IMG/VR virus record: IMGVR_UViG_3300033233_000004
Location: 64,001-128,000 of that record
Source: a virus
Reading direction: 5' to 3' (one strand)
Length of the DNA stretch: 64,000 nt
Positions within the stretch are counted from its first letter, which is position 1, and each line of letters begins with the position of its first letter. A program made the translations under genes and the position numbers. This document shows, piece after piece, positions 1 through 46,749 of this stretch. The notes under the pieces were generated by a model. The model saw nothing but the letters and a program-made list of their open reading frames with translations. It made no database searches and had not been told where the DNA came from.

Positions 1-536
1 GTCGATGGAAAATCCAATTCGGCACGAAGTTTGTTGAACGCCTCATGTCCAGCTTTACGTTCCTGAATGGAAAACATATATTTACGTTTCGTATAATCCT
101 CATCAACAGAGTAATTGAACACAGACTTATCTATGAAAGGAGTAACAATATACCAATCATTATCTGCTAAATGTGGCACCGCCAATCGGTTAAAATCATT
201 ACTGAACCAAAGCGTAATACCATGGTATAAATTAGCCCTATTAACAAAAACCTCACCTTGAATGTAACTCACTTTATGATAAAAACCTGAACGTAATAAT
301 GGCTCAACATCTTCCCATCCGACAATAACATCTTTTTTCTTATCAGCCATCCGATGCATATCTACGGTCGTGATATGTCGAACATTATAGGCAAACCATG
401 TAGGAACCTTAAGGATATCGTCATAAACAATGAACGAGTCATATCCAAGTTCACGTTCTAACTGACAAAGTTGATAATGAACCTTGATACCACCAGATGG
501 AATCAAATTTTTTGGAAGTATATGAAAGATTTTCAT
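1..536 (-). CDS. glycosyltransferase-like protein (GT-B/GT4-like N-terminus), partial, runs off the window start
   Basis: Hand translation from ATG 536 gives MKIFHILPKNLIPSGGIKVHYQLC..., a typical GT-B 'SGG' start; open to position 1; next to three other GTs. Confidence 0.6.
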   Translation of the reverse strand, partial: MKIFHILPKNLIPSGGIKVHYQLCQLERELGYDSFIVYDDILKVPTWFAYNVRHITTVDMHRMADKKKDVIVGWEDVEPLLRSGFYHKVSYIQGEVFVNRANLYHGITLWFSNDFNRLAVPHLADNDWYIVTPFIDKSVFNYSVDEDYTKRKYMFSIQERKAGHEAFNKLRAELDFPS

Positions 537-558
537 ACTGGAACTCCAAACAATTTAA

Positions 559-687
559 TTAAACGAGAAGAATGTTGTTACAAGAACATAAACATAGCCA
601 TACAACAGTACCTCTTCTCCGACCAACATCTTTAAGCACCACAAGATTACCAAATTTATGTCCTGTTAAGTCTTTATACCTACCCAC
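559..687 (-). pseudogene. N-terminal remnant of an HNH-type homing endonuclease
   Basis: (V)GRYKDLTGHKFGNLVVLKDVGRRRGTVVWLCLCSC then stop; matches the N-terminus of the intact HNH genes at 23763 and 39445. Confidence 0.6.
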
Positions 688-2623
688 TAAACATCACCTC
701 ACTTAACTGTTTTCCAACTGGAATAATATCATAATTCAATGCTTTTAGTCGTGCCTTCTCACCTTTAACTTTGACTTCTTCTGGATGTTCAAAAGCATGT
801 CTCATCAAAACACGTAAGTGTTCAATATCAGGACAACTCCACTTCGCACCAATATAATTTCTAAAATACGGAAGCACTTGAAGTGGCATGTCTTCCAAGC
901 GATAACTTAATGGATAACCCACCTCATCACTTATGAAATCCGTCATACCAGAATAATTCGTTGCAATTACTGGTATCCCACAAGCTCCCGCCTCAATTAA
1001 AAAATTACCAAACCCCTCTGCTCGTGAAGGAAAAATTCCACACTGGTGTGCCGTTATCATCTGAGGTACCATAGTCGGATGGAATGAGTTGGAAGTCAAA
1101 TAAATAGGAGCATGCGGCAACTCTCTACCACCAAGAACATTATTCCTCAACCACGTCTGAGCATCCAATCTTTGCTGTTGTAAAATATAGAACAAACTCA
1201 ACATATGAACAGAGAAAAATACGTCTTCATCAGGTTTAAATTCAGTAATAAATGCACGAAGAGCCAACTCCACACTCTTACGTTCTCCATAAGCACCCAT
1301 CATCAAGAATCCAAACTTACGACGCTTTTCAATAATCAATGGAATACGAGTTGGGTTGTAAATCTTGGTATCAATTGGATTTGGAATGATATCAATAGGA
1401 GTAGTAACACCACGCTCTATCAACAAATTCTGACAAAAAGTACTATTTGTTACCACATTGTCTACATGATTCAATTGGTCTACCCAACCATTGTGAGGTC
1501 GAGTGCCCTCAAACGTAGTATGCGCTATCCTTTTTAACCCCGGTGGCATTAAATATTGATGGTCTCCTTCTGAAGAACGCATAACGACTCTATTCCAATA
1601 ATCATTGGGTTTCTTAATCATTTCTTGTATTTCAAAATCATCCATATTCATCGGTTGATGATATTCTTCAGGAGCAATAGATACATCAACACCATTTCGT
1701 TTCAAACCCTTGGCAAGATTACGAAGAACTATGGAAAATGACCAATCACCATAGATTTTCCCTGTGATAAGAGCCTTCTTGTCACTGGTAGGCACATACT
1801 CTGACGCTGGACGATCATGCTTGAGATAGTACTTCTGCTGTTGAGCACGAGACAATTGACTTACCTTGTCTACACCACCAAAAACTTCATTGGAAGTCTT
1901 ATTTTCGTAATGAATTGTCTTAGCAGTAGGAATATAGAAAGTACGATAACCATATTTACGAGCAATAGTACAAAAATCTACTTCTTCAAAATAAGCAGGA
2001 TTGAACAACTCATCAAAACCCTGCATTACTTGTAAACATTCCTTAGTAATATAAAATAATGCGCCTGTAACATATTCCTGTTCTTCAGGATTGACTTCAA
2101 CAAAATCCTTATCCATAACGCCAGCTAATTTATGCTGCCCCCATCCATACACGTTGATAAAAGCTCCTCCATGTTGGATTCTTCCATCTGGAAAGAGTAA
2201 ACGCCCGCCAAGAATACCTATTTTATTAGCCCTATTCTTATCAGCAAAATTTACAAGTTCCTCAATACAATTGGAATACAACTCCATATCATTATTAGTA
2301 ACAAGAACGTCTGCATCAGGGTAATACTTTCTTACAATAGAAATACCATCATTACATCCACCAGCGTACCCACGATTCTCTTTGTTTAATACAAGACCTA
2401 ATGATATATTATGTGATATAATACTCATATATCCAGTATCATCTATAGCACACTTATCTCTCAAATATGTATCAGATATCCACTCTCGTGTTCCATCCGT
2501 AGAACCATTATCTACAATAACAACTGAGAAATCTTTGAAAGTTTGTCGTTCAAGACTTTTCAAAAAGAGTTTGGTGTAAAAGAGGTTGTTTATTACAGGC
2601 GTTACAACGATAACTTTAGGCAT
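680..2623 (-). CDS. bifunctional GT2 + GT4 glycosyltransferase
   Basis: GT2 motifs VDNGSTDGT, NRGYAGGCN, NND, YFEEVDF; C-terminal GT4 motif PSRAEGFGNFLIEAGACGIPVIAT. Confidence 0.9.
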   Translation of the reverse strand: MPKVIVVTPVINNLFYTKLFLKSLERQTFKDFSVVIVDNGSTDGTREWISDTYLRDKCAIDDTGYMSIISHNISLGLVLNKENRGYAGGCNDGISIVRKYYPDADVLVTNNDMELYSNCIEELVNFADKNRANKIGILGGRLLFPDGRIQHGGAFINVYGWGQHKLAGVMDKDFVEVNPEEQEYVTGALFYITKECLQVMQGFDELFNPAYFEEVDFCTIARKYGYRTFYIPTAKTIHYENKTSNEVFGGVDKVSQLSRAQQQKYYLKHDRPASEYVPTSDKKALITGKIYGDWSFSIVLRNLAKGLKRNGVDVSIAPEEYHQPMNMDDFEIQEMIKKPNDYWNRVVMRSSEGDHQYLMPPGLKRIAHTTFEGTRPHNGWVDQLNHVDNVVTNSTFCQNLLIERGVTTPIDIIPNPIDTKIYNPTRIPLIIEKRRKFGFLMMGAYGERKSVELALRAFITEFKPDEDVFFSVHMLSLFYILQQQRLDAQTWLRNNVLGGRELPHAPIYLTSNSFHPTMVPQMITAHQCGIFPSRAEGFGNFLIEAGACGIPVIATNYSGMTDFISDEVGYPLSYRLEDMPLQVLPYFRNYIGAKWSCPDIEHLRVLMRHAFEHPEEVKVKGEKARLKALNYDIIPVGKQLSEVMFSG

Positions 2624-2672: not shown

Positions 2673-5114
2673 TCAAACGACAATTCTCCCGACCTGCGCA
2701 ATGTTAGTATTAGTCACAGTAAGAATGTTCTGCATTGCTTCATTCAAAATAACCGAAGCTCGTTCCAACGACCAGTTCTGACGAATGTCTTTACCGAGGG
2801 CTTCTGCTCGTTGTTTGGCAATTTTGTAACCATCGTGACATCTCTTAAGACGATTCTTTGCCTTTTCAAAGTCAGGATATGCCCATGTTTGACCTTGACC
2901 AAGAAGTTCTGGCATCCACATCGCTGGTGGAACCTGTCCCATTTGAAACTCAACAATATTTACCAAATCCTTATTGATAAAATCCATATGTCCAGAATAA
3001 CCAGTAACAATAATTGGAAGATCACATGCAGCAGCTTCTGCCAAAGGACGACAATTATGAACAACATAATCCTCTGTGCAATAAGTCTCGTCCTCATCCA
3101 CAGATATATTGTATACAACCTCATCAGCAATCTTAGTCTGAATCTCTTTAATAGTAAACTCCGAATAATCAGATATCAATATACTATCCTTCCTAAAATT
3201 CATCGCCGCGTTGTAGTCCATGGGTACATCAACTCCATCAACAATATTTTTAACTTTATCCACATCTTCCCCATATATACACACACGATATCCAACATTA
3301 TCAGTTGAAAACCCTTGCTTTGATGTACGAGAATACATGTTACTTCTCACACCAAATGTCCTCAACAAAAGTCGAACGTGCTGCGCAAGTCCTTTTGAAA
3401 TTGACGAATATTCAAAAGACTTCTGATTAGTGCTAAAACCACCATCCCCCCTTAATAAGCCACACAGCAAACCAAGACGAAATTCCTTTGATCCGAATAA
3501 CAAGTCTGGATGAATATCCTTATTTTTAGCACCTGTACCAAACAACGATAACAAAAAATCGGCAAGCACTGGCGACGATACAAATACTTTATTTACAAAC
3601 TTATCAATAGGTTTATGAATAGATATAGATTCTGTATTAACTAAAAACTCGGATTTTAATATAAACAACACATCATCAACATACTTATCTTCATCTTGAG
3701 AAAACGTAAACCCTACAGTACCGCCATCTGTAGAGTGCCCTTCTGCAAGATAATAACCAAATAATCTACCGACGTTAGCATTCGTATTGACAAGATTTGA
3801 TATTACATTGTCCGAAGACGATTGAAAAATATTTTTTGATTTTGTCTCAAACATTTTACCTATCTTACCATTATCTACAAAGTAACAATTATGATTTGTA
3901 TTAACATAATTGGAAACCCTAAGTAAAATATTGTTAAACCCACGGGAATTAACCCAGAACTTAGGCATAAGTAATTTATCATCCTGTAATACATCTTTGG
4001 CTTCTTTCCATTGTATGGTAGAGTGGCGGTGAATCAATACTGGATGTTCAGGAGTAATCCACGATTCATTTGCTCTATTTGTAGAATTTGTAATAAATCT
4101 ATACATATTACCGTAATAGTGTCGAGTCATTAACTTCTTAACCATTCGTAACCGTCCATTACGAGTTACAACACTATCCATTTCTGTAATTGATTTTATA
4201 GGCTTCAAACCACTATCTGTTATTATATTAGTTTCACCATTAAAACAATACCCTTCTCCATGAGTCAATAATACAGAAGCCTTAATTTGAGGATGATGAT
4301 ACAATTCTGCCAACTCCTTCTCGGTTAAAGTACCATGGACAAAGTGTACTCGACCAGCAGCCTTTGTGCCCAAAACTTCACTCATTCTTTCAATAAGAGC
4401 ATATTTGTCAGGTGAAGAGTTATTATGAAGATAAGTTTTCACAACTATACCGACCTCTGGATTGTCGGGAAAAGCATCCAAAACGGCAAGAATAGTAAGA
4501 GGTATATTCTTACGGTCTTCGCCAACATTACCCGGAAGCCATTGTCCAACAGTCAAAAAATTGAATGTAGTTGGAAAAGAAAAGGTAGGTGTAGGTATAA
4601 CAACTTCCGTTTCAGGTTCTTCTGCCAATTTATTAATCTTGAAAGGATTAATATCATTGAATACCTTCGTATCAACACCCTCCGGCACTACATACACGGG
4701 AACAGTAACACCACAACCTATCAAACGGTCTTTAACAAAGGTCGATGGTACAATAATAGCATTCATTTGATTGCAATATGCAGCCCACTTCGCTGGATAC
4801 TGCTCAACTTCAAGACCGGCAGTAATTCCGATGTTGCAGGTGTTAGATGCTCTCTTAAACTCGTGTGGTACACCCATTTGTACCCATGCAAACTCAGAAC
4901 CATCTGAGATGCGATTATTGCACATGAATACCAATGCATCATCTACATCTTTGGCTGGCTGTATGGTACTCGACCCACCCCATCCGGTTGGAATAATTGA
5001 GATATTGAAGTTGCCACTATTAAAAAGTCCCATAACAATGTCACGAGCATGACATCCGTATCCACTAAGAGAAAACACAGGCATCTGGCATATCAAATTC
5101 TTTCTTTCCATCAT
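2673..5114 (-). CDS. GT4 glycosyltransferase containing an intein (about 415 aa after splicing)
   Basis: SGYG N-terminus, RKN motif, THGEGY|intein|CRPLAEAAACDLPII. Confidence 0.9.
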   Translation of the reverse strand: MMERKNLICQMPVFSLSGYGCHARDIVMGLFNSGNFNISIIPTGWGGSSTIQPAKDVDDALVFMCNNRISDGSEFAWVQMGVPHEFKRASNTCNIGITAGLEVEQYPAKWAAYCNQMNAIIVPSTFVKDRLIGCGVTVPVYVVPEGVDTKVFNDINPFKINKLAEEPETEVVIPTPTFSFPTTFNFLTVGQWLPGNVGEDRKNIPLTILAVLDAFPDNPEVGIVVKTYLHNNSSPDKYALIERMSEVLGTKAAGRVHFVHGTLTEKELAELYHHPQIKASVLLTHGEGYCFNGETNIITDSGLKPIKSITEMDSVVTRNGRLRMVKKLMTRHYYGNMYRFITNSTNRANESWITPEHPVLIHRHSTIQWKEAKDVLQDDKLLMPKFWVNSRGFNNILLRVSNYVNTNHNCYFVDNGKIGKMFETKSKNIFQSSSDNVISNLVNTNANVGRLFGYYLAEGHSTDGGTVGFTFSQDEDKYVDDVLFILKSEFLVNTESISIHKPIDKFVNKVFVSSPVLADFLLSLFGTGAKNKDIHPDLLFGSKEFRLGLLCGLLRGDGGFSTNQKSFEYSSISKGLAQHVRLLLRTFGVRSNMYSRTSKQGFSTDNVGYRVCIYGEDVDKVKNIVDGVDVPMDYNAAMNFRKDSILISDYSEFTIKEIQTKIADEVVYNISVDEDETYCTEDYVVHNCRPLAEAAACDLPIIVTGYSGHMDFINKDLVNIVEFQMGQVPPAMWMPELLGQGQTWAYPDFEKAKNRLKRCHDGYKIAKQRAEALGKDIRQNWSLERASVILNEAMQNILTVTNTNIAQVGRIVV
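3054..4247 (-). mobile_element. intein (398 aa) with LAGLIDADG endonuclease
   Basis: Block A CFNGET, block B ITPEHP, LAGLIDADG motifs GYYLAEG and GLLRGDG, block F/G VYNISV...VVHN followed by Cys+1. Confidence 0.93.
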
Positions 5115-5128: not shown

Positions 5129-6364
5129 TTACATTGTAGTAACAGTATAACGTTTGAACTTTGAAGGCATGACAACAGTTTCTTTTAGAATCTTATCCCA
5201 TGCTGCAACCGTTCTATTTATATGATAATTTTGTATAATATGTTCACGACCCGCCAGACCAAGCTCCTTAAGCTTTCCAGTTTGTTTCATCTGATATGCT
5301 TGTTCAAGAGCTTCCTCAACTGCTTCAATAGAAGTAAAATCTTGAAATATATAGGGGTTTCCAACTAATCCAAAAATGGTTCTTACTGTTGGTTTCAACA
5401 AAAGTCCAAACTCTTGTTTACCATCAGTCATTTGCTCAGTAAGTCCACCTGTTGCTACTGCAATATTGGGTGTACCTGCAAGAAGTGATTCCATACAAGA
5501 CAAACCAAAACCTTCGTTTATCGCAATATTCATAGTCACATCAGAAACATTGTAGAACTTGTTCAAGTCCGAAGAAGTAACCTTGTTTTGGTTAATAATA
5601 ATAGGTGCTGCATTGGGTTCAACTTGTTTGAGAAGCATGCCCAAATCATTTCCATCACGGTCAACAGCAACGGTGTTCATAATGAGAGCGGACTTCGGAT
5701 GTTTCGTCCAAAATCGACGGAAAGCAAGAATGACATCAGAAGTACGTTTCCGAGGAATATTACGATTATTATAAAGCACTACAAAGTCTGGTTTCTCTGG
5801 AAGGTTCTTAAACATAATATCTTTTGCAGCTTCTACTTCTTGTGGTTCCAATGGATAAAACTCAGAAGGGTCTCCACCATGTGGAGCAAAATCTACATCA
5901 ACACCACCGTTTTTCATCAACTCATAAGAAAAACGAGAGAGCATAACAATACGGTCACACGCAGCATACCACGTCTTGTTGAATGCAGGAAATGGTTCAT
6001 TATCCCACGTATGATAAAATACGAATTTGGTAAATGGACGAATCTCATTATCCAAAGTAAAAGCGTATACAAAAAATCGAGGGTCGGAAAAGAATACTGT
6101 AACATCAGGACGCTCTCTTTGAATAACCGCCTTCAACAAATTTGGGTCTCCATATCCATTACTACAGGGATACAGACGAATACCTTCAAATGTAGTTGGA
6201 TTTGGATTTTGTGGTATCAAAGAACCAGCAATGGAAACAATTTCGTATTCGCCGGTCTTGAGTAAACCTTTCATAAGCATATACGCCTGTATTGCAACAC
6301 CAGATTTTAGTCTTATATCATCCGTAACAAAAAGAATTTTGTATCTACGCATACGTAGCCCCAC
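5129..6364 (-). CDS. GT4 glycosyltransferase
   Basis: KILFVTD..SGVA, RNIPRKR, NEGFGLSCMESLLAGTP; true start probably ATG 6352. Confidence 0.9.
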   Translation of the reverse strand: MGLRMRRYKILFVTDDIRLKSGVAIQAYMLMKGLLKTGEYEIVSIAGSLIPQNPNPTTFEGIRLYPCSNGYGDPNLLKAVIQRERPDVTVFFSDPRFFVYAFTLDNEIRPFTKFVFYHTWDNEPFPAFNKTWYAACDRIVMLSRFSYELMKNGGVDVDFAPHGGDPSEFYPLEPQEVEAAKDIMFKNLPEKPDFVVLYNNRNIPRKRTSDVILAFRRFWTKHPKSALIMNTVAVDRDGNDLGMLLKQVEPNAAPIIINQNKVTSSDLNKFYNVSDVTMNIAINEGFGLSCMESLLAGTPNIAVATGGLTEQMTDGKQEFGLLLKPTVRTIFGLVGNPYIFQDFTSIEAVEEALEQAYQMKQTGKLKELGLAGREHIIQNYHINRTVAAWDKILKETVVMPSKFKRYTVTTM

Positions 6365-32165: not shown

Positions 32166-32171
32166 ATAATC

Positions 32172-33609: not shown

Positions 33610-33640
33610 AGAGGAACCTATAGGTAAGATGAAGGAAGGA

Positions 33641-33665: not shown

Positions 33666-33681
33666 TTAATATAAGAATGGA

Positions 33682-34146
33682 TTACTTATTACTCATAAAA
33701 ATTCTTTCGCACTCTAACGTAGCATTTTCTTTAATTGTAATTTCACCGGCACCAACTGTCTTACTCCAACCTGTTATCCAGCAACGGTCATATACTATTT
33801 GGCGAGACTCACCATTAGGGCCTGTGATTTGTTCAACAATGGTAATTGGGTCACGAATTTGAGCGATTGATTCACCAAAAATATTGTAACCTAATGCTTT
33901 GATAACGTTCTTATTGTATGTTTCAATACGGTCGATAGTGATTTTGAATTCAGAACGACCCGGAACAATTTCAAACGTGTCTTCCAACGTATTTAGAATT
34001 TCACGAACACGTTCGACTGCTCGGTTAGCCGTAGGATTAAATCCTTGAAGTGTACCAATTTCTACACCTTGGGATTTAATTGTGTAGCTATAGGAGACCA
34101 CACTTTGAGTATTTGGAATTTGAGTATGATTTTTGAAATTTAACAT
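33682..34146 (-). CDS. tail tube protein
   Basis: 154 aa after sheath; IG.LQ.F....R..ERVREI, EIVPG, Y..CWI, I.ENAT. Confidence 0.8.
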   Translation of the reverse strand: MLNFKNHTQIPNTQSVVSYSYTIKSQGVEIGTLQGFNPTANRAVERVREILNTLEDTFEIVPGRSEFKITIDRIETYNKNVIKALGYNIFGESIAQIRDPITIVEQITGPNGESRQIVYDRCWITGWSKTVGAGEITIKENATLECERIFMSNK

Positions 34147-35232: not shown

Positions 35233-36759
35233 TTATATGAAGGTCGAAACCACGATGTTGATAAACTTCATTGGATAAAGGAATTTTATACTGCATGTTA
35301 CGTTAATTCTTCGCGGTTCATTTACATCCTGAATTGCAGTAATCTTGGTTTCACCAGTGTTGGGATCATCCTTAATACCATATCCAAATATTTCTCCTGC
35401 TTGACGTAAACTATTGAGAATTGAACGAGTCGTTGCCTCAACATCACGTACCGTTGAAGGGTTAATCGTTTTGCCTTTATTGGTGTAAACCTCAAACAAC
35501 TTAGCGGAAAGTGTACGCTCAACCAATCGACGCTGTGATACTACAGAAATCTCTTGTGTATCAGCACTTGTACTATCAGTCGTAATAGCATCACGAATAG
35601 TAATGAGACCAGCAATGTTTTGTAATACCAAAACACCACCAGCACCAAGAGAATTCATCTGGAACATATCCCACTTATCTTCTTCAATATTAATACCAGT
35701 TACCGGGAATCCAGTTATTGGAATGGAACGCAATGGTTGTGCAGCATGAACACCAGCAATAGCACATGCAGCGTATGCCGAATCCAGTTCTATACGAATA
35801 TTATTATTGTCAAATCTCCATACAACAGATGGAGCAACTAAAGCAACATCTTCATGCGAAAATGCTTTTGCTTTACCAATGTAAGAATTTGATACACTGG
35901 AATCTCCAATAAGGTCAAAACTTTCAGATGGATTGTATAATGGAGACGATACACCATAATACATACCTCTCCAACGACCATTAAGATTCATTAATTGTGT
36001 ATGCTGAAATAAATATGTCTGAACATCGTTACGGAATGTCGATGTTGGAAGAGAACCACTTGGGAAAATAGCAATAACTTCTTCAATAGCACTCTTCTTA
36101 CGCAATTTATCAATAGCATCTCGATAATTTGCAACAGAGAATGATGCCAACGAACCAGACACTTGACATACAATAACAGCAGGTGCTCCATTTTCTAAAG
36201 CAATAGATGCAGCAATTGTCAAGCTACCCGATGTGTTATTTTCCTCACCGAAGAAATCAACAAGAGATTGCTTGTCGGAGAATGTCATTGGTAAGAATTG
36301 TGATGCAGGAACGTCAAATTGATATGTTACATAATACACAGAACCTGTTGCTGGAACCGAACCTGTAGTAACTGCTGCGGCTTCTTGATTCCAAGAAATT
36401 ATACCATTAGTATACAAACCATTACTTCCAAAGTAACCTGCAACTGGAAATACACCACCTGCTGGAATAGAACCAGATGGAAGATAAAGACTTCCATTCA
36501 CACCTTGAATAGCATCTGGACTACTACCGCTTACCAAGCCTGTACGTTTTGCAACTTTTGTAATGACAACATTCGTGGATGGATACGCAGCAAGAGCATC
36601 AGTACCGCCGACACCTCTTTGTACAGCTTCATCAACAACATAGCGAACAACAGGGCCTATGCCGACAATGGCTGGCAATCGTGCCTCACCAGCAATATTA
36701 ATAATGCGTGGATTTGGAACGACATTGACATCGACTTTTGGTGGAGAATAAAGAGACAT
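35233..36759 (-). CDS. tail sheath protein
   Basis: Y.PP.V.V start, IRDAITTD, EISV, EPRRINV....K..YP...I.I C-terminus. Confidence 0.88.
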   Translation of the reverse strand: MSLYSPPKVDVNVVPNPRIINIAGEARLPAIVGIGPVVRYVVDEAVQRGVGGTDALAAYPSTNVVITKVAKRTGLVSGSSPDAIQGVNGSLYLPSGSIPAGGVFPVAGYFGSNGLYTNGIISWNQEAAAVTTGSVPATGSVYYVTYQFDVPASQFLPMTFSDKQSLVDFFGEENNTSGSLTIAASIALENGAPAVIVCQVSGSLASFSVANYRDAIDKLRKKSAIEEVIAIFPSGSLPTSTFRNDVQTYLFQHTQLMNLNGRWRGMYYGVSSPLYNPSESFDLIGDSSVSNSYIGKAKAFSHEDVALVAPSVVWRFDNNNIRIELDSAYAACAIAGVHAAQPLRSIPITGFPVTGINIEEDKWDMFQMNSLGAGGVLVLQNIAGLITIRDAITTDSTSADTQEISVVSQRRLVERTLSAKLFEVYTNKGKTINPSTVRDVEATTRSILNSLRQAGEIFGYGIKDDPNTGETKITAIQDVNEPRRINVTCSIKFLYPMKFINIVVSTFI

Positions 36760-36888: not shown

Positions 36889-37977
36889 TCAAAACCCAGT
36901 AACTGCGCCATGAGTATTGATTTCTTTAATAGTTTGTTCTTCAAAATCAAGGCTCCATTCGGTACGTATATCAACAGTAAGACCAATAGTGAAAATTATG
37001 TCATTATCTCCACGCTTACGGTTCTCTAAGGCTCCCTTTGCCACTTTTTTAATAGAAATACCTTTACTGGTAAGGAAAGGTACATTATCAACCAATAATC
37101 TGGATAAATTGAGTTTGGCTTCATTAGTGCTTGAACGACTCAATGCACCATACTGTCCCATTTTAATGTATATTTCACTTAAATCTGCAAGATTTTGTGC
37201 TTTTTCCATAGAGTTCTTTGAAGAACAACGAATAATAATGGAGAATTCTTGAGCACCACCCATTCGCATAAGCGGAGAATAACGTAATCCGCCATAAATA
37301 CTGCCAGTGACCAGAGTGCCTATAGGAGTGCTGCCTGAGTAGGCTATGGAAGAATAAACACCATTGTACGTAGTATCTATAGCAATTCGATATACTGAAC
37401 CTGATTTTGGTGTAAGTTCAATCCAGTAGTCCTGACCATTCTGAATCAAAGGATATGAATAGAAACCACCGAAATATGTACTTGTCGTAAGAGAATCAAA
37501 ACTCTGAATACTACCTGATGCAAGAAGTACAGACCCTGTAGTAAAGTAATTTTGAAATAGTTTGATAGTGATGTCTTCAACATTCTCACCATTTTTCCAT
37601 ACCATATCTGTAATAAATCCACCCAAAGAACCTGTAAAATTGGATGGTAATTTAAAAGCAAATGGAGTACTGGTTGAAAAATTTACTAAAGCTAACGACC
37701 GAGTACCAAGTGGAGATGTGAAATCAAAAGTGTTATCTACTTGGTCATTGAAACCGAGTGATACAGACGTACCACCTAAAGAACCCACGGTTATCAAAGG
37801 ATACTTTTCAGGCTCTTCAAAAAATTGTTCGAAGACAAGTTCACCTTCTGGCTTATCTACCGAAACTATCTCCAATTCACGATTAGTCCATGAACCACCA
37901 TATCTAAAACAACGTCTTAGATATTCTACAAATGTATCTTTTCCATGTTTTTCAAAACGATAAAATAGTTTATCCAT
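36889..37977 (-). CDS. tail terminator / completion protein with inserted beta domain
   Basis: EKYPLITV motif; upstream of sheath. Confidence 0.5.
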   Translation of the reverse strand: MDKLFYRFEKHGKDTFVEYLRRCFRYGGSWTNRELEIVSVDKPEGELVFEQFFEEPEKYPLITVGSLGGTSVSLGFNDQVDNTFDFTSPLGTRSLALVNFSTSTPFAFKLPSNFTGSLGGFITDMVWKNGENVEDITIKLFQNYFTTGSVLLASGSIQSFDSLTTSTYFGGFYSYPLIQNGQDYWIELTPKSGSVYRIAIDTTYNGVYSSIAYSGSTPIGTLVTGSIYGGLRYSPLMRMGGAQEFSIIIRCSSKNSMEKAQNLADLSEIYIKMGQYGALSRSSTNEAKLNLSRLLVDNVPFLTSKGISIKKVAKGALENRKRGDNDIIFTIGLTVDIRTEWSLDFEEQTIKEINTHGAVTGF

Positions 37978-40990: not shown

Positions 40991-41416
40991 TTATCGTGAT
41001 GTACTTGAACGAATCCAAGCCTCGCCTTCTAACCAACGTTCAGCAAGCTCAACATTTCCACTTGGATACATAAACAAGTCCCATACTCCACGAAGACCGC
41101 TCTCAAGAGGTCTCGATTGTGAAGCCAGAAGACTAAGAGTTAAACCGCCATTACTATCTGAAGAACCTGTATTTGGATTACTACCACTAAATGTAATAGT
41201 GAATTGTACCATAACATTCGGATTGTTGTAACCATCTCGTATTTGTGCAAGACCAGTAAAGCCAGTTAAATCTATAGGAACAAAAACAGGATTGGCAGAA
41301 GATGACGGAGCAAAGAAAGTGATGGGTAAATTAAATATTGCACCTTTATCAATCGTAATATCATAGTGAACAGCATTGTTTCGTTGTTCAAGATTGATGT
41401 TCGCTATGTTCGGCAT
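40991..41416 (-). CDS. virion adaptor protein (BppU/LtfC-like beta sandwich)
   Basis: DITIDKGA.F, PIDLTGFT..AQIR, WDL......RWLEG. Confidence 0.6.
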   Translation of the reverse strand: MPNIANINLEQRNNAVHYDITIDKGAIFNLPITFFAPSSSANPVFVPIDLTGFTGLAQIRDGYNNPNVMVQFTITFSGSNPNTGSSDSNGGLTLSLLASQSRPLESGLRGVWDLFMYPSGNVELAERWLEGEAWIRSSTSR

Positions 41417-41418
41417 AG

Positions 41419-41919
41419 TTAATTATCCTTCTTTTTACCCATGTGCACAAAAACACGAAGTTTATCAAGAAGACCATTTGGAAATGGTAATCCTGCTATC
41501 ATACATGCATTTTCCACGATTGAAATAACTTCAGTTATAGCCAACCATGCTAAAGCTCCTGTATCGAGACCCATCCAACCAAAAATAAATAAACTGACAT
41601 ATGACAAAGAATGAAAAGCACCTATGATAATGAAATACATAAGTAACTTTATCAAACCGTTTCGAAATGCACTTGAATTGAATGAATTGTTTTTGAAAGC
41701 AAGCCATACTCCTGTTAGTTGGTCAATTAACACTAATCCAACTAATACACCGACACCCATTACATTTGAATGAATAAAAAAAGTGATAAAAGAAGCTATA
41801 ACAGTTAATGCTGTTTTTAACCATGGGAATTCCCACAATGAAGCAAAGTTATGTTTCAGAGGAAGAAAAAGCAAATTCAAATATTCCATTGATTCTATCT
41901 CACATTCTTTTGCACACAT
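41419..41919 (-). CDS. phage holin (holin_4 family)
   Basis: LIDQLTG, S...R.G..K, EVISIVEN...G.P.P. Confidence 0.85.
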   Translation of the reverse strand: MCAKECEIESMEYLNLLFLPLKHNFASLWEFPWLKTALTVIASFITFFIHSNVMGVGVLVGLVLIDQLTGVWLAFKNNSFNSSAFRNGLIKLLMYFIIIGAFHSLSYVSLFIFGWMGLDTGALAWLAITEVISIVENACMIAGLPFPNGLLDKLRVFVHMGKKKDN

Positions 41920-41944
41920 AAAAGTAAACTCCTGACACGCATAT

Positions 41945-42100
41945 TATATATCCCAAATAATTACAAACTATAGTTTGGATTCTTACTACCAGACATTAAA
42001 GCACTCATTATCACCCATATTTTTACCAGTACAAGCTCTACTAATTTTACGCTTAATTTCCTCAGAATTTTTACAACCAAGTTTAGGCATACAATTATCC
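41945..42100 (-). pseudogene. NUMOD3 endonuclease remnant
   Basis: MPKLGCKNSEEIKRKISRACTGK...; ends FVIIWDI* in another frame. Confidence 0.55.
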
Positions 42101-42649
42101 ACCCATCCCAAGACGTGTTCCTCTGAGACCTCTTGTAAGACTTCGTGGAAAAGAGGTTTGACCAGAAAAAGCACCCTTCGGATGTATACGCTCGAAGGCG
42201 AGGGTCTTTCTTAAAACGGGAAGTGTTGTATTAATAAAGGAAAGAATAGAACCATTGGCAATTGCGGCGTAATCTTGTTGCTTCTTACGCATTAAACTTA
42301 TACCATTATCCGAATATTCGAAATGGGTTCCAGCTTCGAAAATTTGTAAACGAACGCAAACAAAGAATTCAGCACATATCATCACTGGTGTAGAAAGTAT
42401 AGAAGATACAGTTTCATCTGTAGGATTAGCTGCACCCGCATATAAATCGGAAGAAGTAAATGTCGTAATGATTGGTGGAAAGGTATTGAAAAAATTGAGA
42501 CCCATACGAAAATCTTCCCACAACTCATCATTACTTAATTGACCCGGAAGTCGAAAATTAGAACCCGATGCTAATTGAGTCCTCATAGAAATTCTTGATC
42601 GTAAAAGGTCTACGAAAAATAACTGTTCAGTAGATAATTGATAAGGCAT
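42095..42649 (-). CDS. head-tail adaptor (neck) protein
   Basis: FNTFPP, FEYSDNGISL; start at ATG 42649. Confidence 0.55.
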   Translation of the reverse strand: MPYQLSTEQLFFVDLLRSRISMRTQLASGSNFRLPGQLSNDELWEDFRMGLNFFNTFPPIITTFTSSDLYAGAANPTDETVSSILSTPVMICAEFFVCVRLQIFEAGTHFEYSDNGISLMRKKQQDYAAIANGSILSFINTTLPVLRKTLAFERIHPKGAFSGQTSFPRSLTRGLRGTRLGMGG

Positions 42650-42663
42650 GTAATCACCGCAGA

Positions 42664-43152
42664 TTAAATTTGAAATTGTATTGATAACCAAGTCCAACCA
42701 GCACTCTTACTACCATTTCCACCGAATCCAACAACTCTTAGAAGTATATCAGTTTTCGCTGGTGGCGCAATTGTAACAAAGGGGGTAGTTCTTACCACTG
42801 TTCCGCCAGTTCCTGCATTTATATCACTAAGTGTTCCAGTGGATTCCAGACTTTGCCATGTAGAACCAGAATCTAATGAATATTGAACTCGTAATTTTGC
42901 AGTAGAAAACCCATCAATATCTTGAATACTACATATACGAAATTGTTCAAAATAACGTAGGTTAACCATTCTTCTGGCATATACTCCATTTTTGAATTCT
43001 GTAAGAGCAACGGGAATAGTCCAAGTAGTATCATACGCCACAGTTTGAGATACAATAGTCAAATCAAAAAAGGTATGATTCGGCAATATATCAGAGGATT
43101 GTAATAATTGCGGTTGTCCATCAACTACAACTACTGGTCTTCTAACAGTCAT
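42664..43152 (-). CDS. virion accessory protein
   Basis: RRPVVVVDG..Q.LQ..D N-terminus shared with 43154; VQYSLDSG.TW. Confidence 0.55.
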   Translation of the reverse strand: MTVRRPVVVVDGQPQLLQSSDILPNHTFFDLTIVSQTVAYDTTWTIPVALTEFKNGVYARRMVNLRYFEQFRICSIQDIDGFSTAKLRVQYSLDSGSTWQSLESTGTLSDINAGTGGTVVRTTPFVTIAPPAKTDILLRVVGFGGNGSKSAGWTWLSIQFQI

Positions 43153-43153
43153 T

Positions 43154-43618
43154 TTAGAGTTTTATTGGTTGTCTTTGAGTAATTTCAAAAGACGTTGCAG
43201 ACAATGCTTGACCAACTTCGACCACGTATCCGGTAACTGGTGGAGTATTGGATAGTCGTCCCTCTATTGTATCCAAATAATATACAGATTGAGGAACAAG
43301 GAATGTAGAACCAATGACTGCCGTCCAATCACTCTGTTCCAACTCACCATCAGTAATTATACTTCCACTGGCACCTGATAGAATGCTCGTATCATACACC
43401 AAACCAAATACACGCTGTTTTCCAGCAGTGGCGGCATTGGCAAGGTTTATACTACCACCAGAAGCTACGTAAACTGGTTGTCCTTTTACAATAGAACCTG
43501 TATTAGCATTGCCAGCTAATACCAAATCTAACTGTATGCCAAAAGCATCCAGAGTATCGCCAAATTGTAATTGTTCAATTTGACCGTTGTTTAAGACAAG
43601 GGGTTTTCGAGATGACAT
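43154..43618 (-). CDS. capsid cement / fibre-like protein (DUF2190-like)
   Basis: GQPVY, LANA, YYL....G.L...PP..GYV..VG.A. Confidence 0.6.
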   Translation of the reverse strand: MSSRKPLVLNNGQIEQLQFGDTLDAFGIQLDLVLAGNANTGSIVKGQPVYVASGGSINLANAATAGKQRVFGLVYDTSILSGASGSIITDGELEQSDWTAVIGSTFLVPQSVYYLDTIEGRLSNTPPVTGYVVEVGQALSATSFEITQRQPIKL

Positions 43619-44183: not shown

Positions 44184-46152
44184 TTATTGGGTAATTGTAC
44201 CTGAATGCGTACCACGAGCAACGCCGTTAGCAACCAAAGCCGCCATACCAAGTTCCTCATAAGCTACGTAACCGATACTTGCCTGTTTTGGAGCATCGTC
44301 TGGCATAAGCATAAGCTCAGTACGGACAGGCATAACACCAAAGAATCTTGGCTCTGCCAATGCGTACACTGAACCACGCTGTACCTGACGGCTGACAATA
44401 AGGTCAATACCCCAAATGGAACCGTACAGACCAGTTTCCAATACCTCACGAAGAGATACAGGGTCGAGGTCTTTGTTCGACCAAACACGGATGTCTGCGA
44501 ACGAACGGAAACGCATAAGGAATGCGTACTGTGGGAGGTCGAAGTCCATGATAGACGTAGATAAGTCGTTCAAGAAAATCTTGCTTGCACCAGCCGTACC
44601 AACTGTGTAAGGAACATTGGCAAGGTTACCTGCCGTTGTACCATTCAAAAGTGCCAAGAACTGCAAGTCTTCCTGTTCCTGAACTGCAATCTTAAGTGCT
44701 TCTTGAGTACGATCAAGAATGTTGAAACGCCTCTGTTGAATCTCAGACAGACGGATGTTTGCGTCTGCGAAGATTTCCCAAGTCGTCGGTTCAACAAACT
44801 CAGCGTTGATATTAACTTCATCAACCGCACCCTTCTTTGCAACTACGAAAGCATTAACTTGTTTCTTAATGTCCCTATCGTAACGAACAATCTGACCTTG
44901 AGCCAGAATGTCAATTTCGAGGAACTTTCGGGCTACACCAACGTAGTCCAATTGTTCACGGATAGGCACTGCCATTTGCAATATGTTACGTCTTATTCAG
45001 ACGGTGACAGTATTTCTACTGCACTCTTACTGTTGCCAGTAAGCTCGGACTATCTCTTCACTTTGGTATATTCAACCAAAATGTTTCACGTATAGTCTCT
45101 GAGGAGCACAAAACTTCTTTATGCATTTTGTATTTGAAATAAGGAACATAAAATCGAGAAAGATATTTGCTCAATATATGTCTTGTATCAGCCGCAAAAT
45201 ACAAATACCAATAGTGGGTTTTTCCATTACTTTTTTGAATCGGTGTTGTTTTTATTCCAAATTTTTTGAAGAAGTAATACCGAATAAGTTTTACTTCTTC
45301 TAAAGTAAAGGAACATGTTGATAACCAATAACTATTTTTATCAAATGCTCCATCGTCATAGAATAAAAAGACAAGGCCAAGTATACTTAACCTATCCAAC
45401 GCCTCTTCTGTAACAATTTTACGTTTTTCTTCATTATACATCATCCTATATATACATTTCAAATCGGGATGTTGTATAGTAGAAAATCCGCAACTAACAT
45501 CGTTCATTTCATATTTTATATCTTGAACACATAGATTATTCAGCAGTAGCCTTTTAATCTTTACGTATTCTTGTTGTTTATACGAATGATGAACTCTTAG
45601 TCTAACAGAACCATTTTTATTAATATCTAAATTACCATCTCCAAAAATAGTGCCAATAATAAAACCATATTGCCATTCTGGAATTGGATTACATCGAAGT
45701 ACTTCCGCCCGTTGTTGAATATCGGCAAGTTCTGTTGTCAATCCAAAAGATTTTCTATAAAATATTATAGGGTCTATAGGAATATTCAGTATACTTGCAA
45801 CTTCAACATGAGAAAGTTGCTTGATATCATTTTGATTAAGAAAAGATTCTGTCAGTATGTTACTATACTTGTAACGATACGTTCCCATCTTAGTTTTGCT
45901 TTCCTGCTGATTGACTCTGTTCTCGGATTTTTACCCTTTGGGTACCGCTAACATTAAATGAGTTGTTCCAGCATATAGTGAAATTAGGTGCCCAAATTAC
46001 TAAGCACCAACTGCTTGCCTTCCCGCTTCTGTTTGCAACGCATCAAACACTTGGTCTACGCTTACGGCATCCTGAAACGTCTGGAATCCGTCTTGTGCAG
46101 CCGTTGCCTGTGATGCTGTTGTTGCAAAACCTGCTTGTGGCTTGTTATTCAT
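44184..46152 (-). CDS. major capsid protein (314 aa), spliced: join(46152..46003, 44978..44184)
   Basis: Exon 1 MNNKPQ...EAGRQAVGA joins in frame to exon 2 QMAVPIREQLDYVGVARK...RRFNILDR.Q...Q.QED...G.YG.IWG...EELGM, a large-phage capsid family pattern. Confidence 0.88.
44979..46002 (-). ncRNA. group I intron (1024 nt) in the major capsid gene
   Basis: P1 GGUGCU/GGCACC with U.G, P10 AUUUG/CAAAU, P AUGCUGGAA, Q AAUCAGCAGG, R CAGAGACUA, S AAGAGAUAGUCC, P3 UUUCAC/GUGAAA, P9 hairpins, terminal G. Confidence 0.93.
45058..45888 (-). CDS. intron-encoded LAGLIDADG homing endonuclease
   Basis: IIGTIFGDG and FLFYDDG motifs, LST.SFT.EEV. Confidence 0.88.
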   Translation of the reverse strand: MGTYRYKYSNILTESFLNQNDIKQLSHVEVASILNIPIDPIIFYRKSFGLTTELADIQQRAEVLRCNPIPEWQYGFIIGTIFGDGNLDINKNGSVRLRVHHSYKQQEYVKIKRLLLNNLCVQDIKYEMNDVSCGFSTIQHPDLKCIYRMMYNEEKRKIVTEEALDRLSILGLVFLFYDDGAFDKNSYWLSTCSFTLEEVKLIRYYFFKKFGIKTTPIQKSNGKTHYWYLYFAADTRHILSKYLSRFYVPYFKYKMHKEVLCSSETIRETFWLNIPK

Positions 46153-46266
46153 GATATTACCTCTCATGTTATTATGTGATTATATTACCTGCAAGACAAA
46201 CTTGCAGTTATTGTACCGATATTGGAGCGGGATTTAAGGGAACCCCGCTCAGACCTTTTGCACAGC

Positions 46267-46749
46267 TTAGATACGGAACAAAATACCAAGCGTGTAATCG
46301 TTGGCTGCATTAGGCACCTGAATAAGCTTTGCCTGTACAGAACCTGTCTGGCTTGCGCCACCAACTGTAACCACCGAACCAGTAAGCGTTAGCCTACCAA
46401 GAGAGTTGACCCACAAGTTATTACCAACAGAACCAGCTTCAACATCAAGTGCATATGCACGAGTTGGATCACCTGCTGCAACTTCTGCGGAGTGGTTGAT
46501 ATAAACCTTTGAACCAACACCATAGATACCAGTCAACAGAGAACCTGTTGGCGGAGTCGAAAGACCCAACTGTGTGGTATTTGCAGGGTCAACACCCATG
46601 AAGAGAGCATTGTCATTTGCTGCTAATACTGCTTCCCCAAGAGAGTTTAATGTGAAAAAGTTACCCGGAACCCAACCAGTTGTAATGGTTGCTGCGGAAA
46701 CTTTGAAAGTGTCTTTTGCAAACACACGATTCATTAATACTTTACTCAT
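46267..46749 (-). CDS. capsid decoration / cement protein
   Basis: 160 aa directly upstream of the capsid gene; G..LWVN..G.LT, VP.A....LG. Confidence 0.6.
   Translation of the reverse strand: MSKVLMNRVFAKDTFKVSAATITTGWVPGNFFTLNSLGEAVLAANDNALFMGVDPANTTQLGLSTPPTGSLLTGIYGVGSKVYINHSAEVAAGDPTRAYALDVEAGSVGNNLWVNSLGRLTLTGSVVTVGGASQTGSVQAKLIQVPNAANDYTLGILFRI

Follow-up and report, generated by a model that had tools for sequence, protein, structure and literature searches.

Virion glycosylation by phages has reportedly been described for mycobacteriophages by Freeman et al. 2023 (Cell Host Microbe). As in the proposal made here, phage-encoded cytoplasmic glycosyltransferases (GTs), whose genes lie next to the structural genes, modify virion proteins of the same phage, and a shielding role has been proposed. 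According to PMC12619734, capsid and tail-tube subunits bear the mycobacteriophage glycans on extensions at their C-termini. The C-terminal tails of these two proteins form the single well-studied case, and glycosylation of phage structural proteins is considered rare (PMC5852040).

The window analysed here, a stretch of 64,000 nt, comes from the 171,836-bp genome of an uncultured 172-kb phage (G000), in which the original prediction had read the tripeptide [S/T]-G-S on outer virion proteins, together with a cluster of four GTs, as a virion glycosylation system. In contrast to the mycobacteriophages, the capsid 3' exon and the tail tube are free of the motif, and about 70 short candidate sites lie in internal loops of fibre, baseplate, outer sheath, neck and decoration proteins rather than in C-terminal extensions. 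The hosts also differ, being aquatic (for the cultured relatives, Flavobacterium and Microcystis); moreover, the phages belong to unrelated lineages and bring a large island for sugar synthesis, and the system is known here from sequence.

Chloroviruses glycosylate their own capsid, whose major capsid protein bears the known glycans in N-linkage at atypical sequons, and encode B736L, a soluble retaining GT-B enzyme. B736L (PDB 3oy2) is the closest solved relative of two enzymes of the window, GT4a (E 4.5e-15) and GT4b (E 5.5e-9), at low identity; to our knowledge, no acceptor of B736L has been established. It belongs to a eukaryotic virus with N-linked glycans, whereas O-linkage is proposed for the phage. 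In streptococci, GtfA-GtfB is the O-GlcNAc transferase of serine-rich repeat adhesins, formed by adjacent GT-B paralogs as a cytoplasmic complex. The likeness lies in two adjacent GT-B paralogs forming a complex, which for GT4a-GT4b is a heterodimer supported by models, but GtfB is non-catalytic while GT4a and GT4b both keep the EX7E motif, and its substrates are long Ser-rich repeats instead of isolated SGS loops; the match to Gtf1 (4pqg) reaches only E 0.006.

The TibC/AAH (BAHT) heptosyltransferases are cytoplasmic and modify many serines in short loops between the short β-strands of a β-rich surface protein. This is a likeness of structural context (hydrophobic-SGS-hydrophobic in the phage), whereas enzyme family and sugar differ and the BAHT substrates are bacterial adhesins. 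The general O-glycosylation system of Bacteroidota, which is periplasmic and host-encoded, uses the sequon D-(S/T)-(A/I/L/V/M/T). It resembles the present proposal in that three residues specify O-glycosylation, and it belongs to the phylum of Flavobacterium, one of the cultured hosts, but its motif is different. The analogy to eukaryotic Ser-Gly xylosylation that had been drawn for this locus fails because the flanks here are hydrophobic, not acidic; the Golgi xylosyltransferase belongs to another family than the GT4 enzymes, and the common point is a Ser beside a Gly.

The Ser/Thr-Gly-Ser motif on virion proteins

Outward-facing tail, fibre, neck and head-decoration proteins carry Ser/Thr-Gly-Ser at four to six times chance. 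Across the open reading frames (ORFs) of the window, [ST]GS occurs 71 times against 17.4 expected from 2000 per-protein shuffles (sd 4.0, z 13.4), with 46 SGS (9.0 expected) and 25 TGS (8.3 expected). Control tripeptides stay flat in the window shuffles (observed/expected: SGT 6/8.3, GSS 9/9.2, AGS 7/7.4, SGA 6/7.4), and TGT, SAS and TAS likewise lack enrichment. Of all 8000 tripeptides, SGS (45/7.1) is the most over-represented in the virion block, followed by TGS (25/6.6); the other 135 kb of the genome show no excess of either (SGS 8/9.5, TGS 6/8.8).

The signal is specific by position: position 1 takes S or T, position 2 admits only G and position 3 only S, and I/V/L/F/M make up residue +3 at 63% of sites versus a background of 29%. 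Enrichment survives correction for composition and for dipeptides, SGS lying 2.3-3 fold above the first-order (dipeptide) expectation, and the varied codon use noted earlier was confirmed, both Ser codon families being employed. A recount reproduced all per-protein hand counts of the original prediction and found no motif in the tail tube, the tape measure, the protein at 27080-29251, the major capsid protein, the GTs and the RNA ligase; in agreement with the original prediction, the sole non-virion case of the window is a protease (GASGSG in 58222-58884, trypsin-like). The virion features are as follows.

13939..16206, minus strand: tail fibre protein, 14 motifs (PHROG tail-fibre families)
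35233..36759, minus strand: tail sheath, 7 motifs (Foldseek matches to phi812, pyocin and AFP sheaths)
16643..17608, minus strand: baseplate-region protein, 7 motifs
36889..37977, minus strand: neck/sheath-end-like protein, 6 motifs (AF2 and Foldseek)
10424..11557, minus strand: virion (fibre/baseplate-region) protein, 6 motifs
11569..12660, minus strand: virion protein, 4 motifs
12661..13923, minus strand: virion structural protein (phrog_1645), 3 motifs
18971..20374, minus strand: baseplate wedge subunit (phrog_6), 2 motifs
22886..26429, minus strand: three fibre-tip-like proteins (22886, 24380 and 25232; 3, 3 and 4 motifs) and a 110-aa protein (26097; 2 motifs)
40991..43618, minus strand: small head-proximal virion-module proteins, four ORFs (40991-41416, 2 motifs; 42095-42697, 1; 42664-43152, 1; 43154-43618, 2)
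46267..46749, minus strand: putative decoration protein of 160 aa beside the capsid gene, 3 motifs
27080..34146, minus strand: contrast set of hub-region proteins, tape measure, a 257-aa protein and the tail tube (33682-34146), 0 motifs
44184..44981, minus strand: contrast, 3' exon of the major capsid protein (phrog_2522), 0 motifs

Two of the fibre-tip-like proteins are paralogous 283-aa proteins, and the homologs of 16643-17608 in the relatives G2, G5 and L070 are motif-rich too. The protein at 46267-46749, which by its position only would be a decoration protein, has homologs in G2 and G5. The label 'LamG' formerly attached to 11569-12660 found no confirmation in Pfam or PHROGs.

Mapping onto two AlphaFold models (35233-36759 and 36889-37977) places the motifs in loops of outward-facing domains. 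All 7 sheath motifs are confined to the N-terminal half (residues 77-234), with 0 in the conserved C-terminal half, as had been claimed; in the AF2 model (pLDDT 84.5) every one of them is in a loop, before a strand, at a helix N-cap or after a strand, and the conserved C-terminal sheath domain has 0 sites in both motif-bearing lineages described below. The 6 motifs of 36889-37977, earlier assigned to a central insertion, all lie within its central β-sandwich domain (residues 86-235; AF2 model pLDDT 76) at strand/loop junctions, and these sites are conserved with S/T swaps at position 1. The best Foldseek matches of this protein are phage 812 neck and baseplate chains, at low TM-scores.

The glycosyltransferase pair and the sugar island

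The four GT genes of the window were confirmed, the first of them running beyond its edge.

1..536, minus strand: 3' part of a GT4 gene (whole gene 63589-64536 of the genome, 315 aa; Pfam Glycos_transf_1 / Glyco_trans_1_4 above cut-off)
680..2623, minus strand: GT2-GT4 fusion glycosyltransferase of 647 aa (Pfam Glycos_transf_2 at residues 6-132, Glycos_transf_1 at 518-568; G2 ortholog 47% identical)
2673..5114, minus strand: GT4b, one half of a conserved GT4 pair, interrupted by an intein (orthologs)
3054..4247, minus strand: intein with LAGLIDADG endonuclease, residues 290-687 of GT4b (Pfam LAGLIDADG_3, Intein_splicing, Hint)
5129..6364, minus strand: GT4a, the most conserved GT of the cluster (Pfam Glycos_transf_1 2e-12)

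GT4a matches Glycos_transf_1 (PF00534) with 47.4 bits against a cut-off of 26.4; the GT4b orthologs of relatives match this family too, and in the window the GT4b domain is split by the intein. The two enzymes are paralogs (hhalign 98.5%), and EX7E is present in GT4a as invariant E..GFGL....E columns and in GT4b as GEG[FWY]..PL.EA with an invariant E. Comparison with the G2 ortholog, which lacks the intein, shows that the intein interrupts the catalytic EX7E of GT4b, with boundaries GEGY/C...VVHN/CRPLAEA; inteins usually occupy conserved sites of important proteins. Intein-free GT4b orthologs of about 390-430 aa occur in G2, G5, G21, immuto and Mel-JY01. The cluster (1-6364) has the same orientation as the virion genes, which start at 10424, about 4 kb off; G2 and G5 show this arrangement as well, and GT4a directly adjoins the virion module in relatives.

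Complex prediction for the G2 proteins gives GT4a+GT4b an ipSAE of 0.85 versus 0.00 for the best control. In calibration, 58 of 80 solved complexes but also 2 of 110 mismatched pairs attain this mark, counts that apply only roughly because the prediction used custom alignments; GT-B dimers have already been solved, and the score may partly mirror likeness to known structures. Contact agreement between runs is at least 96% and partner pLDDT at least 88. The models suggest that GT4a and GT4b probably work as a heterodimer.

The system is larger than the original prediction described: just upstream of the window lie a fifth GT and a nucleotide-sugar island of roughly 15 kb, which encodes a 4,6-dehydratase, a DegT aminotransferase, a TPP enzyme, methyltransferases, a B12-radical-SAM enzyme and several SDR epimerases/reductases, and which resembles O-antigen-type sugar pathways. 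DNA as the target of the GTs is disfavoured because no ThyA-type hydroxymethylase (PF00303) was found in a search whose control worked, and because the DNA of immuto, the one relative from which the DNA chemistry is taken, was found by LC-UV-MS/MS to contain canonical dA, dC and dT together with fdPreQ1, no glycosylated nucleoside being reported (PMC10516641). A search for TET/JBP (PF12851) gave no match, its control likewise matching nothing anywhere.

Motif and enzyme pair across phages

In 34 IMG/VR loci of the clade the motif is in 2-5 fold excess at GC contents of 0.30-0.52, and sheath homologs down to 34% identity carry 4-7 motifs versus about 0.7 expected. Individual sites come and go, yet their density is maintained: two are nearly fixed, and about 30 further alignment columns hold a site only sporadically. 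Between G000 and G2, 33% of sites are retained versus 9.5% for control tripeptides, 45 of the 56 motif sites of G2 are new relative to G000, and many sites arise at conserved Gly columns that pre-existed. All six clade records of at least 74% completeness have 4-8 GT4 genes; GT4b relatives occur in more than 565 places in IMG/VR, and GT4a is adjacent to GT4b at all 80 loci found there via GT4b.

The same excess is found in an unrelated T4-like lineage, to which G021, Microcystis phage Mel-JY01 and Flavobacterium phage immuto belong. In the proteome of immuto, SGS heads the tripeptide ranking; 8 motifs are present in the sheath of G021 where 0.7 would be expected, and the 120 best sheath homologs each have 2-8 motifs versus 0.57 expected. 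The T4-like sheath search returned 7674 proteins. Only 8 BLAST-detectable proteins are common to G000 and this lineage, mostly replication-type genes together with GT4a, GT4b and the GT4 domain of the fusion. GT4a orthologs are full length in both lineages at 30-46% identity, and in 50,697 phage records a full-length GT4a is confined to immuto, Mel-JY01 and LR756508. As the SGS excess is also present in a Microcystis phage, the motif follows the phage and not the host.

No motif excess exists in T4, Bacillus phage G, Tonenili and L039 (GT-less) or in P-HM1 (GT-less; 15/14.5). In the T4-like sheath alignment, T4 and P-HM1 carry unrelated residues in the SGS columns, the motif thus being missing at homologous positions of GT-less relatives. 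In two unrelated lineages the excess goes together with a single GT4 gene pair; since motif and pair are universal inside each of them, this co-variation amounts to about two independent lineages plus outgroups. The jumbo phage LR756508, which has a GT4a ortholog and no GT4b, shows no SGS excess in 84 kb sampled, which means that GT4a alone is not predictive of the motif. TJE1 and S-CBS4 have distant GT4 homologs without the motif, so the claim is confined to this GT4 orthogroup.

Computed directly here were the motif statistics, the confinement of the motif to virion proteins, its placement in loops, the turnover of its sites and its association with the GT pair; the evidence leading from motif to glycosylation is in all members one of association. 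The sequon interpretation of the original prediction is partly supported: each computational check that it had suggested turned out favourably (enrichment after correction, loop placement, absence from GT-less phages and association with the GT pair), and it is weakened by the jumbo phage with GT4a only and by the loss of the xylosylation analogy.

The proposed glycan coat and its alternatives

The reading of [S/T]-G-S as a candidate cytoplasmic O-glycosylation sequon used by a GT4a/GT4b enzyme is given slightly better than even chances, the motif then probably being the attachment signal for a phage-made sugar coat. The phage's own island of roughly 15 kb would supply an unusual nucleotide sugar. 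Working in the cytoplasm, the soluble retaining GT4a/GT4b pair, a probable heterodimer, would transfer the sugar to Ser/Thr hydroxyls of loops exposed on the fibres, the periphery of the baseplate, the outer domains of the sheath, the neck and the head decoration. The acceptor would be [S/T]-G-S with S-G-S as its core, usually with a hydrophobic residue on each side. Lineage-variable GTs (GT2, the GT2-GT4 fusion and further GT4s) would extend the glycan into a coat covering the particle surface. We infer the action of the GTs on virion proteins, the residue modified and the purpose of such a coat, which might shield the particle from proteases, defence or grazers, or tune adsorption. The lack of a site in the major capsid protein counts against the glycosylation sequon, and pooled non-virion proteins are not depleted of the motif (56 versus 50.0 expected), which is unexpected for a promiscuous cytoplasmic enzyme reading a bare tripeptide.

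A wider proposal, held tentatively and at somewhat less than even chances, is that a portable two-subunit O-glycosylation system (GT4a/GT4b heterodimer, exchangeable sugar-synthesis and extension genes, S-G-S sequon) moved between unrelated myovirus lineages, whose recipients convergently evolved dozens of sequons on all outward-facing virion proteins, so that glycan-coated particles would be the norm in thousands of aquatic phages. A short, countable sequon would make virion glycosylation predictable from sequence and mappable residue by residue, with Flavobacterium phage immuto (NC_055915) and Microcystis phage Mel-JY01 (PP395634) as cultured stand-ins. If true, a large share of aquatic myoviruses would wear a self-made glycan coat, with consequences for adsorption, stability, grazing and the stickiness of particles as well as for the reading of cryo-EM densities and of masses in proteomics, and a compact soluble O-glycosylation tag-and-enzyme pair would be available for glyco-engineering. 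The same data would offer a clean example of convergent motif acquisition following horizontal enzyme transfer.

It is unlikely that SGS is purely structural, as a tight turn or β-arc between hydrophobic strands in β-rich surface domains to which the GTs and the sugar island are unrelated. Hydrophobic flanks around a central Gly, which also count against the glycosylation sequon, would fit such a turn, as would the strand/loop junctions in 36889-37977, the pre-existing conserved Gly columns and the undepleted non-virion proteins; a generic turn, however, would take G-T, G-N, G-D or A/N at position 1, where only [ST]-G-S is enriched. In addition, the structural contexts in the sheath differ, the homologous folds of T4 and P-HM1 lack SGS, and the sharing of GT4 pair and motif by two unrelated lineages would have to be coincidence.

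There is similarly little probability that the GTs and the island modify the host envelope (e.g. LPS, capsule or S-layer, for superinfection exclusion or release) or make a free or lipid-linked glycan, with the motif as the target or binding site of another shared factor. Replication genes aside, the GT4s are the only factors common to both motif-bearing lineages, their cluster is contiguous and co-oriented with the virion module, and a non-exhaustive scan of ORFs near the GTs found no membrane-associated polymerase, flippase or Gtr-type gene; these points stand against the similarity of the island to O-antigen-type pathways, GTs without a recognisable protein-acceptor domain, and the phage LPS/glycan gene clusters that have reportedly been proposed for marine myoviruses.

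Very improbable is a motif serving another modification or recognition (Ser phosphorylation, acylation, cross-linking, chaperone or protease recognition) while the GTs glycosylate phage DNA, for which a phosphatase gene beside the head module and signs of modified purines could be cited, but the phosphatase is not common to the T4-like lineage, no kinase or alternative candidate writer co-varies with the motif, and both the missing ThyA-like hydroxymethylase and the DNA chemistry of immuto, a phage with the GT pair, argue against DNA glycosylation. The sign of modified purines in the genome is a MazZ-like gene (6529-7029), and the phosphatase gene, of the Ser/Thr type, occupies 48931-49743.

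Distribution of the tripeptide in the virion module

The window corresponds to bases 64001-128000 of a complete record of an uncultured virus (G000; 171,836 bp, with direct terminal repeats). It has a GC content of 38% and carries nearly all of its genes on the minus strand. The virion module of a myovirus occupies 10424-46749 and comprises tail fibre and "virion structural protein" families, a gp6-like wedge, the tape measure, tube and lysis proteins, and the major capsid protein. The AF2 model of the sheath matches the sheaths of phi812, pyocin and AFP. A nucleotide search with the sheath region found no match among 50,697 phage records, and the protein search recovered distant sheaths only, the nearest cultured ones being those of Bacillus phage G, mycobacteriophage Tonenili and Tunturi_5 (23-28% identity). 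The label "LamG" previously given to 11569-12660 was left unconfirmed.

The module is peppered with mobile elements. An IS200/IS605-type transposase/TnpB-like gene (17713-18924, minus strand; phrog_506, 3.5e-144) is flanked by baseplate genes, and an HNH endonuclease lies on the opposite strand in the neck/head region (39385-40134, plus strand). The major capsid gene (44184-46250, minus strand) appears to be interrupted: ORF 44184-44981 matches capsid-family positions 63-315 only, a LAGLIDADG homing endonuclease ORF (45058-45888) lies upstream of it, and 45026-45212 matches a group I intron (44.2 bits, under the gathering score of 50; E 1.4e-9). The capsid gene of the relative G5 is uninterrupted.

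The original prediction held that SGS and TGS on outer virion proteins form a glycosylation sequon served by the phage's own glycosyltransferases (GTs). Its hand counts were all reproduced, and the excess survives composition correction. Shuffling each protein 2000 times with its composition preserved gives an expectation of 17.4 for [ST]GS in the window ORFs, against 71 observed (z 13.4); SGS is at 46 against 9.0 and TGS at 25 against 8.3, while the proposed control tripeptides are flat (observed/expected: SGT 6/8.3, GSS 9/9.2, AGS 7/7.4, SGA 6/7.4). When all 8000 tripeptides of the virion block are ranked, SGS (45/7.1) is first and TGS (25/6.6) second, followed by overlaps of the motif itself (GSI, GSV, PSG, VSG). 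This block holds 70 of the 84 occurrences genome-wide, and the remaining 189 ORFs are at expectation (SGS 8/9.5, TGS 6/8.8). The tube, tape measure, hub-region proteins, capsid protein, GTs and RNA ligase carry none, as had been noticed, and the sole non-virion case in the window, a catalytic GASGSG, belongs to a trypsin-like protease. Outside the virion block, the strongest over-representation is that of KTA (33/9.4), DII (36/11.1) and ADI (32/9.4).

The motif is sharply bounded, with only S or T at position 1, only G at position 2 and only S at position 3. Near-variants are at expectation (SGT 6/6.6, TGT 4/6.2), and [S/T]-A-S is not enriched in G000 (SAS 6/6.0, TAS 5/5.6). SGS also exceeds what the SG and GS dipeptide counts predict (45 vs 16.4). 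Position +3 is I, V, L, F or M at 63% of sites against a background of 29%, and position -1 favours V and P. The varied codon usage noted earlier extends to both Ser codon families and all four Gly codons, which implies a protein-level signal rather than a DNA repeat.

The seven sheath sites all fall in loops of the model (pLDDT 84.5), between residues 77 and 234: two in a long loop, one after a helix, one before a strand, one at a helix N-cap, and the last two in strand-to-helix loops of an alpha/beta domain. The conserved C-terminal half carries none, and in sheath architecture it is the N-terminal and inserted domains that face outward. The six sites of 36889-37977 (model pLDDT 76), which had been assigned to a central insertion, all fall where strands meet loops in a central beta-sandwich domain; the best structural matches of this protein are neck and sheath-end chains of phage 812, with low TM-scores.

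Glycosyltransferase genes and the sugar island

All four GT genes of the original prediction exist, its "fourth GT-B gene" being a GT4 gene cut by the window start, and further glycosylation genes that it had not seen lie upstream.

Glycosylation genes of the window and of the sugar island directly upstream
1-536: GT4 gene, 3' part
680-2623: GT2-GT4 fusion
2673-5114: GT4 with intein (GT4b)
5129-6364: GT4 (GT4a)
G000 48739-63592, sugar island: GDP-mannose/dTDP-glucose-type 4,6-dehydratase; DegT aminotransferase; three-domain TPP enzyme; ketopantoate-hydroxymethyltransferase homolog (3.4e-90); three more SDR epimerases/reductases; B12-binding radical-SAM enzyme; GT2; several methyltransferases

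The island and the GT cluster adjoin the virion genes and share their orientation, and the synteny is kept in a relative whose sheath is only 50% identical. Judged by gene content, the island and the GTs would make and transfer an unusual sugar, whether amino, methylated or branched. The combination of the TPP enzyme, the ketopantoate-hydroxymethyltransferase homolog and the B12-radical-SAM enzyme with the dehydratase, aminotransferase and SDRs (G000 48739-58668, window -15261 to -5332) suggests a branched-chain or C-methylated amino sugar. Such a combination of enzymes is odd for a phage.

Two ORFs next to the cluster have other affinities. The minus-strand ORF 7810-8817 (335 aa), with the GT cluster on one side and the RNA ligase on the other, was rejected as a GT; it has no Pfam match and weakly matches the distal tail protein Dit of SPP1 (2x8k, E 0.0027). 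ORF 6529-7029 (minus strand) encodes a dATP/dGTP diphosphohydrolase N-terminal domain (PF18909, MazZ-like; 1.5e-22), which hints at a modified purine in the DNA, possibly through a 2-aminoadenine or deazaguanine-type pathway.

GT4a and GT4b are the best-conserved GTs, are neighbours in all relatives and are mutual paralogs (hhalign 98.5%). Both retain the EX7E signature, and the best solved relative of each is the chlorovirus GT4 enzyme B736L. Inteins are unusual in glycosyltransferases, yet GT4b contains one of 398 residues (3054-4247, minus strand) with a LAGLIDADG endonuclease, Cys1, terminal His-Asn and Cys+1, inserted exactly within the catalytic EX7E; the ortholog in the relative G2 is free of it. 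In the uncultured T4-like phage G021 and in Microcystis phage Mel-JY01, GT4a consists of two consecutive ORFs (~183 and ~309 aa), one per Rossmann half (L088 9688-11158 and L100 9001-10492, respectively). As the split is shared by an uncultured and a cultured phage, it is probably a true split enzyme and not a pseudogene.

Structure prediction supports, without showing, a GT4a-GT4b heterodimer. For the G2 pair, with our own alignments, the ipSAE was 0.85, whereas the best of three controls scored 0.00. Of the solved complexes 58 of 80 come up to this mark, as do 2 of 110 mismatched pairs, and it is to be read in the knowledge that solved GT-B dimers exist. The contacts are at least 96% the same from run to run, the partner pLDDT does not fall below 88, and the conserved C-terminal tail of GT4a (residues 422-428) packs on GT4b residues 237-245 in the model.

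Conservation in the clade and in a second lineage

Within the clade of G000, the number of sites is 4-7 in 63 sheath homologs with identities as low as 34%, where ~0.7 would be expected, with 1-2 in a few divergent ones; an outgroup with a 27%-identical sheath has no excess. Two sites are almost fixed in the alignment of 61 sequences (52/61 and 47/61), and about 30 other columns hold the motif in part of the sequences only. In sheath-gene neighbourhoods from 34 IMG/VR loci, the motif is in 2-5 fold excess regardless of GC (0.30-0.52), with [ST]GT near expectation. Two relatives taken as whole genomes (182 kb and 168 kb) show the excess only in virion bins, which adjoin the GT cluster. Sites of G000 are retained in these two relatives at 33% vs 9.5% for control tripeptides and at 19% vs 5.1%, or 3.5x, while about 80% of the relatives' sites fall at non-site positions of G000. 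Close relatives preserve the sites with swaps between S and T at position 1.

Raised conservation together with high turnover at constant density is what a modification sequon displays; a structurally indispensable residue would not show such turnover. The hydrophobic-S-G-S-hydrophobic pattern would also make a plausible tight turn, and a purely structural role is a less likely alternative.

An IMG/VR search with GT4a recovered the same adjacent pair in phages without detectable structural similarity to G000. One of them, G021, is T4-like, with a phrog_23 sheath, a gp23-like capsid protein and a gp13-like adaptor, and its nearest cultured phages are Flavobacterium phage vB_FspM_immuto and Mel-JY01. 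Only eight G000 proteins have BLAST matches in this lineage, mostly replication-type proteins plus GT4a, GT4b and the GT4 domain of the fusion. Twelve pair-bearing fragments yielded no G000-type sheath and come from T4-like phages. The G021 sheath has 8 sites against 0.7 expected, and several fibre/baseplate proteins have 4-10. Every one of its 120 best homologs has 2-8 sites, and 118 have 4-8, where 0.57 would be expected; the sites are confined to the N-terminal two thirds, which are variable. In the T4-like sheath alignment, the SGS columns are occupied by unrelated residues in T4 and P-HM1.

Among 50,697 phage records, full-length GT4a occurs only in immuto, Mel-JY01 and an uncultured 484-kb phage (LR756508). 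In immuto and Mel-JY01 the genes after it encode GT4b, a GT2, sugar enzymes and methyltransferases. No tripeptide of the immuto proteome is more over-represented than SGS (65/23.8), one virion bin having 52 against 11.1, and the tail bins of Mel-JY01 have 49 against 6.8. The cultured hosts belong to different phyla, so that the motif follows the phage-borne GT pair rather than the host. In seven pooled records with low-complexity ORFs removed, virion proteins have SGS 189/45.7 and TGS 112/41.8; other proteins have SGS 56/50.0 and TGS 38/40.1.

The excess is not shared by virion proteins in general: SGS and TGS are at expectation in the structural-gene regions of T4, Bacillus phage G, Tonenili and outgroup L039, and the T4-like cyanophage P-HM1 has 15 against 14.5. 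Phages with distant GT4 homologs (TJE1, S-CBS4) show no SGS excess either, which ties the link to the GT4a/GT4b orthogroup and not to phage GT4s generally.

Motif and GT pair co-occur in two lineages and not in the outgroups, with one phage as a partial exception. LR756508.1 (L123, L124; uncultured) has GT4a, adjoining the same PD-(D/E)XK nuclease neighbour as in immuto and G021, and GT4b nowhere. It shows no clear excess in the 84 kb sampled, with SGS at 3/3.3 in 43 kb around the sheath and little excess around the GT (13/6.2). Either GT4b or the pair is the relevant enzyme, or the link between GT and motif is weakened. All six clade records at least 74% complete have 4-8 GT4 genes, and GT4a is beside GT4b in 80 of 80 loci. 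Motif and pair being universal within each lineage, the association amounts to about two independent lineages plus outgroups. TGS is enriched in some members only and SGT also in immuto, which makes the tolerated variants lineage-specific.

The motif as a candidate sequon

A phage-encoded O-glycosylation sequon is the most likely explanation of the motif on the sequence evidence, with a probability that we place a little above even, and the original interpretation is to that extent partly supported. The candidate is directly testable in two cultured phages. DNA as the target of the GTs would account for the enzymes differently and is argued against: the genome has no ThyA-type hydroxymethylase (a TET/JBP search also found no match, but its control likewise matched nothing). 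In immuto, LC-UV-MS/MS found canonical dA, dC and dT and complete replacement of dG by formyl-preQ1, with no glycosylated nucleoside among those reported (PMC10516641). As immuto carries GT4a, GT4b and the sugar island, its GTs should have another acceptor. SEA-domain-like autoproteolysis at G|S[IV] was dropped, since 14 cuts in one fibre are implausible and it offers no link to the GT pair.

If the GTs read the motif as a glycosylation sequon, they would also need its context (hydrophobic flanks, a loop or a folded surface), or off-target modification would be harmless, because non-virion proteins do not consistently avoid it: SGS is at 51/71.7 in the 80 loci, and together with the pooled records there is no consistent depletion. 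The 20-kb GT4b neighbourhoods are a poor test of avoidance, as the pair has replication genes for neighbours in T4-like phages, and all control tripeptides are raised by 13 S/G/T-rich ORFs of low complexity.

Autotransporter heptosyltransferases modify loops between short strands, an acceptor context reminiscent of the present one. The proposed analogy with Ser-Gly xylosylation fails on flanking residues. The two-enzyme arrangement resembles the GT-B pair GtfA/GtfB, with the difference that both partners look catalytic here. In mycobacteriophages (virion) and chloroviruses (capsid), soluble GTs encoded by the virus glycosylate its own particle, as is predicted here. The mycobacteriophage glycans sit at the C-terminal tails of two kinds of subunit, capsid and tube (PMC12619734), a placement that defines that case and that the G000 sites do not match. 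A literature search found neither an S-G-S O-glycosylation sequon nor glycosylated tail proteins described for these phages.

Low-complexity S/G/T-rich ORFs with SGT/TSG/GTS repeats are common to many GT-pair-bearing phages, as in Mel-JY01 635-4591 (SGT 96/22.8) and in the 13 ORFs of loci L125-L204. These could be mucin-like hyper-glycosylated fibres, or unrelated.
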